Made by a program: the position numbers and the translations under genes. A stretch of 39,745 nt of DNA from a virus: UHGV virus genome UHGV-0127686. One strand, given 5' to 3'. Each line of letters begins with the position of its first letter. Position 1 is the first letter of the stretch. Below, piece by piece: positions 11,358 through 15,084 of the stretch. The notes beneath the pieces were generated by a model. It saw only the letters and a program-made list of their open reading frames with translations, was not told where the DNA came from and did no database searches.

Positions 11358-11710
11358 TACGCCTCCGATGTAACAGTCGTTATTCCATAAAGAGTGTCGA
11401 TTTCAGCGGAAAACATGACACGTCGGGTCGTGGTATCCACCGTCGTATTGAAAGAGAGGATTGATTTAACGCCCCGCGTTTCGAGGATGCGCTTACGGAT
11501 CGCCAGGTTGTAGGTTTCCGGCTTCTGCTTACCGAGTACGGACTGGATCCACGGAGTCCCCTCGGTGGTGTCGAGAAACCATTGCCCATACCACAATTCG
11601 AATCGCGTTTTTACCGCCTGCGCCACGGCCTCCGGTGAGTTAATCAGCCAGGTGTCATCACCGCTGCCAAAGGTGTAATCGCCATCGGCGTCTTCACGTC
11701 TGTATCGCAT
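11357..11710 (-). CDS. baseplate protein (P2 gpW / Mu gp46-like)
   Basis: 117 aa between V-like and J-like genes; overlapping start/stop. Confidence 0.6.
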   Translation of the reverse strand: MRYRREDADGDYTFGSGDDTWLINSPEAVAQAVKTRFELWYGQWFLDTTEGTPWIQSVLGKQKPETYNLAIRKRILETRGVKSILSFNTTVDTTTRRVMFSAEIDTLYGITTVTSEA

Positions 11711-12462
11711 CAGTTTACCCCATCGGTATTGCTTCCACCGCGCTGAACACCGCCATGAGTGTGCGTATCATCGATTGGCTTGCCGTTAGCCTTCACGCTA
11801 CCCAAAAACTCAACAACACCAGTGATTTTTGAAGCCACACCAGAAACAACAGACCCCACCATGCCCCCCATCCAGGTTAACAGGCCATGAATGGTTACTT
11901 TCTCAGAAAAATCAGCCAGAGGGGCAACCACATCAAGACCACCCGGAGCGACAATTTTAATTTTCCTGGTATCAGGATTAAGCTCAAAATAGGTGCTGCC
12001 ATCGTCACTACGCAACTGTGTGGCACTGGTATTAATACCGCTAATCTTCCTCGCCTGCGACTGGGGGCCTACAATACAAAACGCATCCGATAAATCATGC
12101 ATTCTGTCATCGACCGGTTCCTGTATTCCGCCGCTCTGCCACCAGAAATCAATACAACGATCGGCAAAAACGACAAGACACTCATCCCCGGCTTTAATCG
12201 GAAACGTTAGCGTACATCCTCCGCCACGTGGGAATACCACTGGAACATCCACCAACAATGGGTAATTTTTGGTAATGCGGTTGCCGTCATTATCCTTTTC
12301 AACCGAACGGATAGCAGGCTGCACAACCGCCGTCACCGCATCAGGATCGAATGACTGAATAATGCCAGGCAAGGCGACACGGATCTGATTCTTTGTTGTT
12401 TCCCGTTCAGATTTGAATGTTTCGGCAAGGTCGCCGCTGCGGGTCTGGTCAGATACTGCCAT
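11710..12462 (-). CDS. baseplate spike / assembly protein V-like
   Basis: 250 aa; VDVPVVFPRGGGC and C-terminal HTHGGVQRGGSNTDG recall gpV/gp45-type spike proteins. Confidence 0.7.
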   Translation of the reverse strand: MAVSDQTRSGDLAETFKSERETTKNQIRVALPGIIQSFDPDAVTAVVQPAIRSVEKDNDGNRITKNYPLLVDVPVVFPRGGGCTLTFPIKAGDECLVVFADRCIDFWWQSGGIQEPVDDRMHDLSDAFCIVGPQSQARKISGINTSATQLRSDDGSTYFELNPDTRKIKIVAPGGLDVVAPLADFSEKVTIHGLLTWMGGMVGSVVSGVASKITGVVEFLGSVKANGKPIDDTHTHGGVQRGGSNTDGVN

Positions 12463-12480
12463 TTAGTAGGCTCCAGAAAG

Positions 12481-12506
12481 CAAAAAACCCGCCGGGTGGC
12501 GGGTTT
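12481..12506 (-). terminator. rho-independent terminator (bidirectional hairpin) after the cargo operon
   Basis: cccgccgggtggcggg hairpin flanked by an A-run on one side and T-run on the other; overlaps the stop of the 138-aa gene. Confidence 0.65.
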
Positions 12507-12921
12507 ATGAATCGTAGGTTTTCAATTTTTCGAGTTCATCAGGAGGAAGTTCTATGAAGGTTTCCTCTGCTAATTTTATCAGCCGGGGAAGCATCGAATC
12601 AGCTTGCTGATGAGCGTTTGGGCTGATGATTGCCAATATCTGATAGTGTTCATCGATATAAAGATGCTGAGCATATACCAAAAAATTATCACATGTCCGT
12701 TCACTCAGAGATGCTTCTGGAGGCCAGGGTTTATCGCCAGGTAGCTTTAAGTGAATTTTCCTGATGTTGGCAGCCATCGCATCATAGTTACGTTCAAAAC
12801 CGCCTAACGAACCAAAACACCAGAACTGGGAACCCTTTGAAATATAATCGGCAAGCATTTGAGCATACTTATGTGCTGCAGCTAAATGACGCAATTCTCC
12901 CGTGATACTGACTTTTGCCAT
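12505..12921 (-). CDS. hypothetical protein, second gene of a two-gene cargo operon
   Basis: 138 aa, ATG start 1 nt after the upstream gene's stop; no family recognised. Confidence 0.6.
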   Translation of the reverse strand: MAKVSITGELRHLAAAHKYAQMLADYISKGSQFWCFGSLGGFERNYDAMAANIRKIHLKLPGDKPWPPEASLSERTCDNFLVYAQHLYIDEHYQILAIISPNAHQQADSMLPRLIKLAEETFIELPPDELEKLKTYDS

Positions 12922-12922
12922 G

Positions 12923-13495
12923 TCACATCCATTTAGGGGCGTTGGCTCCCAGCATCTTATGCGATGTTGAGATCAGTTCAATAGCCTCTTCACGGGTAAC
13001 ATTATCTGACAAGAGTTCAGCCTGGAAAGGCTGCGATTGCCTAACTTCAGCGGCCAACTGAGTTGCAGTGTTCTCGACGGCGGTCAACGCACGAACATAT
13101 TTGCGTTTTAATGGGCGCAACATTTGCAGATGGCCTTGCCACATAGGGGACCTTTCCGCTTCAGAGAACATATCCACTAAATGTCCTTTAGCATTTCGGC
13201 ATGCCTTGGCAAGACCTTCGAGATGGGATAAAAACTCTTCCGGAAGCTCATCAACAATGATTCTCCCATTTCGAAAAGCTTCGAGATGAGACATGCCTTC
13301 CTTCGCGGTATTTTCGATTTCTTGAGCGCGTGCAGCAATCGCGGTACAACGACGAAATACCTCTTCAGCATCTAATCGTTGTGGCAGTTCACAAGCATTA
13401 GAGATCAGGGGTTTGAAAGCACCGTTAACAGCTTCCTGAACCTGATTCATTTGTTGTGTAATTGTTGCCAGCGCAAATGCGTAGCTAATCGCCAT
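12923..13495 (-). CDS. hypothetical alpha-helical protein with Rx4H motif, first gene of the cargo operon
   Basis: 190 aa from ATG at 13495 with gagg RBS (track ORF begins with TTG at 13501); contains RNAKGH, reminiscent of a HEPN Rx4-6H motif (weak). Confidence 0.55.
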   Translation of the reverse strand: MAISYAFALATITQQMNQVQEAVNGAFKPLISNACELPQRLDAEEVFRRCTAIAARAQEIENTAKEGMSHLEAFRNGRIIVDELPEEFLSHLEGLAKACRNAKGHLVDMFSEAERSPMWQGHLQMLRPLKRKYVRALTAVENTATQLAAEVRQSQPFQAELLSDNVTREEAIELISTSHKMLGANAPKWM

Positions 13496-13663
13496 ACCCA
13501 ATCCCTCTGTCGTTTTAAACGACTATACACCACTTATTCAAAGTTAGCTGAGCGCTAAAAGTTCGCAAAGTTTAGTGATCATGCAACCACCTAGCAAGCG
13601 ATAAAAAATCATTATTTAGTGAATGTGAACAAACTCAACACTATGCAGAAATGTAACTTTTGG

Positions 13664-14017
13664 TTAACCATCAACCTTTTTACACGGGAAGGAGCCGATG
13701 ATTTTCGGTGCATCCATGCTGTTCTGCAGAAGCTGGACGTTCAGGAAACGCGTTTCGGTACCAGGGCGACGAATGAACTCGAAAGCGTAATTGTTACCGT
13801 CTTTGGCTGGCATAAGACCCATATCCGCCTTCATTCCATTACCGTTGCCGAGCGTTTTGATTTTCTGAGAGGTAACTGTCTCACCATTAATCCTGAACAA
13901 TGAATCAGGAATCAACTCTAATTTGTAGCCACCACACTGAAGCGTGATACCGCCAGGATTCGCAGCAAATGCTAACCCCGGAAGGAAACAGAGTCCGATA
14001 ACAATCCACTTTTTCAC
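13664..14017 (-). CDS. secreted small protein (signal peptide, GTG start)
   Basis: MKKWIVIGLCFLPGLAFA followed by ANPGG; GTG start overlapping the stop of the upstream tail gene with gaggt RBS; 117 aa. Confidence 0.6.
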   Translation of the reverse strand: MKKWIVIGLCFLPGLAFAANPGGITLQCGGYKLELIPDSLFRINGETVTSQKIKTLGNGNGMKADMGLMPAKDGNNYAFEFIRRPGTETRFLNVQLLQNSMDAPKIIGSFPCKKVDG

Positions 14018-15084
14018 TATCCTACCTCACGCTGTAAAGACGACGCAGAACGAAGATCCGCCGCGCCACGCGCTTCGCACATCATATCCATGTACCACGC
14101 CTGGCCCCTTGTATCGCCAGTGTACATAATCCCGCGCACAATATAAACGCCATCCGTTGCGATGCTGGCAGGTTGTGCTGTGGTGCCGCTGAGCGTGATA
14201 TTTCCGTCCGTGTTCTGGTCGGTGATCTGCCCACCAGCCATCGCAATATCATTGTTCGACAGCGCGGTGCGGTACACGGAAGCCTGATCCAGCTGAATAA
14301 GCCCGTTAACCCGGATGTTCGGATTAATAAGAGCGCGGACGTTTACACCGTTGCCGATAGTCTGCTGCGGCATGCCGATAAGCCCGGTGGCGCTGTTGAG
14401 CACAATCGCGTCGTGAACATACTCGTTATTCGCCACCATCTGGCGCTGACCGTCCACAAATTGCCATGTTGCGCCACATTGTCCGGCCACGTTATCCATA
14501 AGATGCCGTGTCATGCCGAACAGCACCCGCCCTCGAGGGAATACGGTAGCAGGCATTTCAGGCGTCAGTCCTTCGGTCGCGCCTTTGGCCTCAAAGTCTT
14601 TCATCAGCGCACGGTTCACATCTGCGACCGTGTAACCGGCCGCCAGCGTCTGCGAGGTTATACTGGTGGCAAATGCCAGATCCGTATCTGCTGCCTGAAT
14701 CAGGACATAGGAATCAATAGGGCTGTCTTTTCCTGTGACCGAGTAGCGAATTTCTCCGCTGAAAATCAGCCCGTAGTTGCGGCCATCACTCTGGCCCACA
14801 TCTGCCGCGTCGACTTCGCGCACGGTCCCGACGTCGCTTGCCGCCACCTCCGGCGCGATACCGTCGTAACCGGCAATCAGCCGCACTTTCGAAAACTCCT
14901 GCCCGGTAATTCGGTTCACAGTATCTGCCGAAAGGTTATAAATTTTGATAGTCCCTACCCGGGACGCGCTGCTGATGTTGAACCAGTCGATCGTAAAGGT
15001 GACTTTGAAATCACTTAGCTCAATTCCCTGACCGTTCCCGTCCACAAGCTGCAGCTCGAAATGTCTCATCCAGTTCTGTGACAT
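14017..15084 (-). CDS. tail/baseplate hub protein (P2 gpD-like, tentative)
   Basis: 355 aa, follows the tape measure and two small tail genes; assignment by position and size. Confidence 0.55.
   Translation of the reverse strand: MSQNWMRHFELQLVDGNGQGIELSDFKVTFTIDWFNISSASRVGTIKIYNLSADTVNRITGQEFSKVRLIAGYDGIAPEVAASDVGTVREVDAADVGQSDGRNYGLIFSGEIRYSVTGKDSPIDSYVLIQAADTDLAFATSITSQTLAAGYTVADVNRALMKDFEAKGATEGLTPEMPATVFPRGRVLFGMTRHLMDNVAGQCGATWQFVDGQRQMVANNEYVHDAIVLNSATGLIGMPQQTIGNGVNVRALINPNIRVNGLIQLDQASVYRTALSNNDIAMAGGQITDQNTDGNITLSGTTAQPASIATDGVYIVRGIMYTGDTRGQAWYMDMMCEARGAADLRSASSLQREVG

Follow-up and report, generated by a model that had tools for sequence, protein, structure and literature searches.

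Toxins of the YafO family (Pfam PF13957) are placed among the BECR-fold, mRNA-degrading toxins of the RelE/ParE superfamily, with an antitoxin-first gene order (PMC11980606). Cleavage data have been given for YafO, and its ribosome dependence is disputed (PMC8546651). In prophage and tailocin clusters, YafO-family toxins have repeatedly been reported without a recognised antitoxin (PMC10449497, PMC4684702). The gpA-gpQ interval of phage P2 has been shown to serve as a reservoir of anti-phage systems, and the catalogue of this hotspot includes arrangement #123, 'YafO_toxin', with 24 occurrences in Table S5; YafO is found in that table alone and is absent from the one that lists systems evaluated for defence (Rousset et al. 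2022, PMC9122126). Here we describe a two-gene locus in the virus genome UHGV-0127686, whose whole analyzed stretch of 39,745 nucleotides (nt) is called the window below. The two genes, designated A (12923..13495, minus strand; 190 amino acids [aa]) and B (12505..12921, minus strand; 138 aa), are flanked by the tail genes of a prophage. We estimate a probability of about two in three that they constitute a mobile toxin-antitoxin cassette, carried as cargo in a SEN34-type prophage tail module, in which B is a YafO-family toxin and A is its cognate antitoxin.

Gene B belongs to the YafO family. Its product matched PF13957 at 62.6 bits (E = 4e-17; the gathering score is 25 bits) over profile positions 12-98 of 101, and each of the 30 clusters of B homologues either carried PF13957 or consisted of fragments. 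Residues 3-119 aligned collinearly with residues 2-126 of K-12 YafO, that is, over nearly the full length, at 25% identity. In an alignment of eight divergent sequences, K-12 YafO included, H57, R75, H104, and E119 of B were invariant, and H57, R75, and H104 are candidate catalytic residues. The PGAP/NCBI annotation names the identical B protein 'type II toxin-antitoxin system YafO family toxin' and A 'hypothetical protein'. By analogy with the family, B is predicted to be an mRNA endoribonuclease toxin. The AlphaFold2 (AF2) model of B has a mean predicted local distance difference test score (pLDDT) of 94.9 and an alpha/beta architecture, with an N-terminal helix and an antiparallel sheet. 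B also has a C-terminal extension that K-12 YafO lacks (residues 120-138, 19 residues; window 12505-12564, minus strand). This extension, here TFIELPPDELEKLKTYDS, is conserved and acidic, is common to all YafO-like toxins paired with an A-family protein, and may be what adapts these toxins to the non-canonical partner A. Judged from its low score against the YafO equivalog model (see below), B represents a divergent YafO subfamily and not an orthologue of K-12 YafO.

The evidence that ties A to B is their linkage. A YafO-family gene was located immediately downstream of the A-family gene in 59/59 inspected loci, down to 17-24% identity for A. These loci included the window, Leclercia, Klebsiella, Pantoea, Pectobacterium, Hafnia, and phage CUS-3, three Serratia loci, the two remotest hits (those of 17-24% identity), and 45 loci from IMG/VR. 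The IMG/VR loci were found by a pattern scan derived from the closer alignment (A1), as the divergent alignment had no conserved stretch. In the window, the stop codon of A and the start codon of B are 1 nt apart (TGG ATG TGA c ATG GCA; the junction TGAcATG is at 12921..12925, minus strand), and the same TGA-n-ATG spacing was present in 45/45 IMG/VR loci as well as in Leclercia, Klebsiella, Pantoea, and Serratia. This arrangement is consistent with translational coupling. In CUS-3 (CP000711; L015:1860-2863), two genes annotated as 'hypothetical' in the immI (ant/mnt) region proved to be a remote A member of 199 aa (hhalign probability, 95%) and a YafO-like protein of 139 aa that is 39% identical to B; there the two genes overlap by 16 nt. 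Because the YafO-family gene is downstream of A at all 59 loci, which span five or more phage contexts and a chromosomal site, A is most likely the cognate antitoxin or partner of B. The charges of the two proteins were also considered as a sign of pairing. A is acidic everywhere, and B is acidic in the window clade and basic in the CUS-3/Pectobacterium clade; charge complementarity is not diagnostic.

The pair moves as a unit. Between 13574 and 12478, the window is 67% identical in DNA sequence to the Leclercia and Klebsiella cassettes, and the homology ends there, so that the homologous block is exactly a leader of about 80 bp, A, B, and the terminator. The GC content is lower in the cassette (43-48%) than in its flanks (48-56%). 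In addition to the slot between the baseplate hub and the spike, where it resides in the window, the cassette was found in a second kind of myovirus baseplate (L037-L039); in a siphovirus slot between the genes for DUF6246 (chaperone) and the tape measure (about 14 IMG/VR loci plus Leclercia, Pantoea, and Serratia); in the lambdoid early region (L052, L053, L060); in the immI region of the P22-like phage CUS-3; and in the gpA-gpQ interval of a P2-like Hafnia alvei prophage (L064:4001-5026). In the Pectobacterium chromosome (L061:4001-5004), the pair stands alone as a two-gene island, away from any phage genes and bordered by an ABC-transporter operon and gcvP. Copies of A and B from the hub-spike group share 97-100% identity, while identity falls to 56% for the neighbouring phrog_3443 protein and to 66% for the spike. 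Such divergence of the flanking genes around nearly identical copies of A and B indicates that the cassette has recently been exchanged between backbones.

The hub-spike slot itself is variable. Among 5426 complete E. coli genomes, 353 carried the hub-to-spike module, and the cassette was present in only 34-37 of these (about 10%). Other cargo in the E. coli slot included DUF4282, DUF2335, thioredoxin-domain, and further genes. In strain TL20 (L065:1026-2154, minus strand), the slot holds an overlapping pair that encodes a 258-aa protein and a 'HEPN domain-containing protein', and in E2348/69 (L066:1028-2180, minus strand) it holds a pair encoding 256 and 131 aa. In phages, the slot is occupied by a 170-aa protein with the Rx4H-like string IRNNLFHGG in vB_EcoM-689R2 (L001:2324-2836, minus strand), by a 266-aa protein in YP3, and by a 138-aa protein with a hydrophobic N-terminal segment in SEN34. 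Scans of these three phage proteins against Pfam and PADLOC gave no match. The hub and the phrog_3443 protein are conserved in vB_EcoM-689R2, YP3, and SEN34 whatever cargo comes after them. On sequence comparison, the cassette is thus best described as non-structural moron cargo in a hypervariable slot of the SEN34-type prophage tail module. As a separate observation, small ORFs (open reading frames) resembling signal-peptide or lipoprotein genes lie between the cassette and the tape measure in the siphovirus slot (L005:7061-7600; L007:7063-7359; L008:4521-5452), and because they follow the cassette, this interval too looks like a multi-gene cargo site.

The partner protein A belongs to an uncharacterised family, and B is a new member of a known and already annotated one. 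Searches of A against Pfam, NCBIfam, and PADLOC identified no family; its only match was the unannotated phrog_35514 (3e-91). The A family is very small: it comprised 34 clusters in a word-indexed search of 5.8 billion proteins, 50 clusters with a broader profile, and 14 hits in an exhaustive hidden Markov model search of 1.84 billion representative proteins; the members are all from Enterobacterales and all named 'hypothetical'. The AF2 model of A (pLDDT 77) is a generic long helical bundle in which four long helices are followed by one short helix at the C terminus. Within the family, the N-terminal 40-100 residues are divergent and the C-terminal half is conserved, with the motif MF..AE.S..W and an SH-x9-W tail; the residues invariant across the whole family (W119, S178, H179, W189) are all in this half. 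Membership in the YafN or Phd-YefM antitoxin family was considered and rejected, the best BLASTP alignment with YafN having E = 0.45 over 23 residues. A starts with ATG, and an in-frame TTG at 13501 would give a protein of 192 aa. Synonymous sites were saturated for both genes, which made dN/dS unusable, and only nonsynonymous divergence (dN) was compared; by this measure (dN, 0.1-0.45) purifying selection acts on both genes, and the rate of change is about 1.6-fold higher in A than in B. Given a spread of 19% to 100% identity among homologues and the saturation of synonymous sites at such dN values, we regard A and B as real coding genes.

The cassette may also bring its own expression signals. 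A 5' leader at 13496..13574 (minus strand) precedes A; its outer end, 13574, is where homology starts in the comparison with Leclercia and Klebsiella. A candidate sigma-70 promoter, TTGCTA-17 nt-TAAACT (13569..13597, minus strand; 8/12 matches), aligns with TTGAAG/TTGAAA-17-TACACT of other cassettes, and the Serratia equivalent matches at 9/12 positions. A scan returned a second candidate, TTGAGT-16-AATAAT, at 13638..13611 (minus strand). Downstream of the putative -10 element, the leader contains the inverted repeat TTAGC-N5-GCTAA (13558..13544, minus strand), whose TTAGC/GCTAA arms are conserved and whose spacer is variable across three loci (the window, L005, and L006). A perfect 7-bp palindrome, GTCGTTT-A-AAACGAC (13523..13509, minus strand), is situated just upstream of the ribosome-binding site of A (GAGGGA, 13507..13502, minus strand) and shows only partial conservation in Leclercia and Klebsiella; it may represent an operator, an RNA hairpin, or a chance occurrence. 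The leader palindromes might act as an operator, and we hypothesize that the cassette has promoter activity of its own. No LexA box, such as that of the dinB-yafNOP operon, was found in the cassette. At the other end, an intrinsic terminator (12475..12506, minus strand; stem-loop 12506..12485) directly follows B and overlaps its stop codon. It has a 9-bp stem with six G-C pairs, a 4-nt loop, and a T-run (-22.7 kcal/mol; z = -3.3 versus shuffled sequences), and an equivalent terminator comes directly after B in the Klebsiella and Serratia cassettes (L006, L008).

All genes of this region are encoded on the minus strand, in the order hub, signal-peptide protein, gap, A, B, terminator, and spike, in a prophage whose regulatory and lysis genes are lambdoid and whose tail is that of a SEN34-type myovirus. 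The upstream anchor is the baseplate hub (14017..15084, minus strand; 355 aa), which has a weak Pfam match to E217_GP41 and is an annotated hub in YP3 and SEN34. The downstream anchor is the membrane-puncturing spike (11710..12462, minus strand; 250 aa), so named by PGAP and supported by a Pfam spike N-terminal domain (1.4e-44) and an Apex motif. An earlier note, made from the sequence of the window alone, had described two tightly coupled genes of 190 and 138 aa, 1 nt apart, with a strong hairpin terminator after them; both ORFs, their junction, and the terminator were confirmed. It had put a 160-bp non-coding gap before the pair, and the gap is indeed non-coding, with a length of 168 bp (13496..13663, minus strand). 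Its placement of the pair between hub and spike holds on the spike side, where the spike gene follows the terminator; on the other side, a gene for a 117-aa signal-peptide protein (phrog_3443; 13664..14017, minus strand) separates the hub from the cassette. This gene is outside the cassette, and its start overlaps the hub stop codon. Its product is 56-100% identical among prophages whose hubs are 96-100% identical, and is thus unusually variable; it could be a baseplate accessory or a surface/exclusion protein.

If A and B act as antitoxin and toxin, the following scheme can be proposed. A would be translated first and, via the TGAcATG junction, would be coupled to B, which it would hold inactive by direct binding. 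The regions of A in contact with B would most likely be in its conserved C-terminal half, namely the MF..AE.S..W motif and the SH-x9-W tail. By homology with YafO, B would degrade mRNA and stop translation. A weak promoter and leader of its own, together with the terminator, would allow the cassette to be expressed in the lysogen independently of the late operon, and antiterminated late transcription would read through it. When A is lost or not replenished, owing to host shut-off by an infecting phage or to loss of the element, free B would arrest the cell, and this arrest could provide protection of the abortive-infection type or addiction.

Several observations weigh against this scheme. With 31.4 bits against a cut-off of 153, B falls below the threshold of the NCBIfam model of the YafO equivalog (NF007377), and because it is so far under this cut-off, the activity of K-12 YafO is not simply transferable to it. 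Foldseek comparison of the B model with the Protein Data Bank (PDB) gave no match at E <= 0.001, solved RelE-type toxins included; the best toxin-like matches, all insignificant, were the S. pneumoniae toxin-antitoxin module 6af4 (template modelling score [TM] about 0.4) and Cami1. A sequence search of solved structures likewise found no relative of B or YafO and none of A. A is larger than its toxin (190 versus 138 aa), and profile searches detected no helix-turn-helix, ribbon-helix-helix, Phd, or AbrB domain in any A-family member; because of this size and the absence of a recognisable DNA-binding domain, A is unlike a classical autoregulating type II antitoxin. The promoter candidates match at only 8-9 of 12 positions, and promoter-like sites were no commoner than in shuffled sequences. 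In PADLOC-DB 2.0, B had no hit and A had only a chance-level one (E = 0.018). Finally, at one IMG/VR locus (L060:4001-4573), A is interrupted by two frameshifts that compensate each other, and the adjacent B is intact. This locus is 99% identical to L052, with four gaps (indels) in 1150 nt, and the frameshifts are probably an assembly or sequencing error; if the break is real, B would be tolerated without A.

The opposite assignment of roles, put forward in the earlier note, took the 190-aa protein for a HEPN-type RNase toxin acting through the Arg and His of an RNAKGH motif and the 138-aa protein for its antitoxin. The idea was reasonable, since A is indeed all-helical, RNAKGH agrees with the Rx4-6H pattern, its Arg being followed by a polar residue, and one HepT chain appeared at rank 4 of the Foldseek list of A. 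That chain, however, had E = 0.22 and TM = 0.28, and nothing in the PDB matched the A model at E <= 0.001. The motif (residues 100-105) is in the middle of helix 3, and its second position varies freely. R100 is replaced by Lys in 5/23 close relatives; R100/H105 are T/N/T and L/M/M in P0065 (Serratia), P0072, and P0073; and both are lost in the CUS-3 member as well, yet all four of these keep the same gene pair. HEPN Pfam models matched no A-family member, and the 138-aa protein is itself in a toxin family. Motif conservation, profile searches, and two fold searches thus rule out A as a HEPN RNase; that reading is largely refuted, and we give it almost no chance. What stands of the proposed toxin-antitoxin layout is a self-contained two-gene cargo cassette with the roles reversed. 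Equally remote is a function in tail assembly, for example with A as a FlgN/FliT-like chaperone for a baseplate protein. The earlier note had seen no tail protein in either gene, and the related prophages bear this out: the same hub-to-spike module carries differing cargo, and about 90% of the E. coli prophages with this hub and spike do without the pair. The pair also resides in the immI region of a P22-like phage, in an early region of lambdoid type, in the replication-to-portal hotspot of P2, and at a chromosomal site outside phages, and on this distribution a tail-structural role was rejected.

It is also improbable that the pair is an inactive or domesticated remnant, in which B has lost its toxicity and both genes persist by hitch-hiking with prophages. 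The distance of B from the YafO equivalog, its acidic character in the window clade, unlike the basic CUS-3 and Pectobacterium versions, and the locus with a frameshifted A would fit such decay. Against it, purifying selection on both genes is strong in many lineages, the candidate catalytic His, Arg, and His are invariant, the junction and terminator are conserved, and A and B are nearly identical across prophages with flanking genes at 56-70% identity. A reading that we consider less remote, though still unlikely, is a two-component abortive-infection system in which A is a sensor or regulator that recognises a phage protein, plausibly one of the tail or another structural component, and thereupon sets free or activates the effector B. 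Such a role would be compatible with the size of A, the absence of a DNA-binding domain from it, and the variability of its N-terminal half: A is a long helical bundle about twice as long as YafN (97 aa), and a divergent N-terminal half joined to a conserved C-terminal half would fit a variable sensing part and a constant toxin-binding part. The slots of the cassette, moreover, hold defence-like cargo, the P2 gpA-gpQ reservoir among them. On the other hand, an ordinary antitoxin with a faster rate of evolution than its toxin would show these features too, a PADLOC match is absent, no defence phenotype is known, and arrangement #123 was catalogued in the P2 hotspot without YafO being among the systems evaluated. 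A bolder synthesis, which we offer tentatively and hold to be doubtful as a whole, would make A an unrecognised antitoxin/sensor family dedicated to the YafO subfamily with the C-terminal extension. The pair would then be a prophage-borne abortive-infection system that hops between the cargo hotspots of at least five temperate-phage architectures, including the previously undescribed SEN34-type hub-spike one; the N-terminal half of A would sense phage, and its SH-x9-W tail would gate the RNase. The toxin-antitoxin cassette, with A as antitoxin of B, remains the reading that we prefer.

Partner swapping in type II systems and toxin-antitoxin morons in prophages are established themes, and since the latter is so well known, the advance made here is incremental. 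It identifies the probable missing partner of one YafO subfamily as a protein of about 190 aa that has no Pfam model and is always encoded upstream of the toxin. Recognition of the A family would improve the annotation of toxin-antitoxin and defence genes in Enterobacterales prophages, and the pair offers a small test case for the control of a RelE-superfamily RNase by a non-canonical helical antitoxin. The hub-to-spike interval of SEN34-type prophages is also flagged as a cargo hotspot that could be mined for further two-gene systems.

Compared with known systems, the locus resembles morons and prophage hotspots, such as the P2 old/tin locus and the P4 hotspot, in being a promoter-genes-terminator-like unit between conserved late genes, in its presence or absence among close relatives, in its lower GC content, and in the many alternative cargos of its slot, including a HEPN-domain pair. 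It differs in location, as the literature searched contained no description of a hotspot between the hub-associated protein and the spike of SEN34-type myoviruses. Like the HEPN-MNT system (HepT-MntA), it is a small module of two genes, one of which encodes a helical protein bearing an Rx4H-like string; the motif of A, however, is not conserved, its fold is not HEPN, and its partner is a toxin-family protein and not a nucleotidyltransferase. The K-12 yafN-yafO pair of the dinB operon is closer. Its toxin is of the same PF13957 family (25% identity, with the conserved His/Arg/His), and it has the same antitoxin-first order and tight coupling, with a spacing of 2 nt in K-12 and of 1 nt here. In contrast, YafN has no detectable similarity to the longer, all-helical A, for which no Pfam model exists; YafO lacks the 19-residue C-terminal extension of B, which is itself under the NF007377 cut-off; and the cassette has neither a LexA box nor the dinB context, being prophage cargo with its own terminator. 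Arrangement #123 of the P2 hotspot likewise consists of a protein of about 197 aa without a named domain followed by a YafO-family toxin, which is 34% identical to B. That toxin lacks the C-terminal extension of B, and the similarity of protein 1 to A is marginal and confined to the C-terminal third (hhalign probability, 39%). Nevertheless, protein 1 ends in SEHKKLGLKDPTFH (SEHKKLGL..P motif), which resembles SHKMLGANAPKWM of A, and a true A-family pair occupies the same gpA-gpQ hotspot in the Hafnia P2-like prophage.

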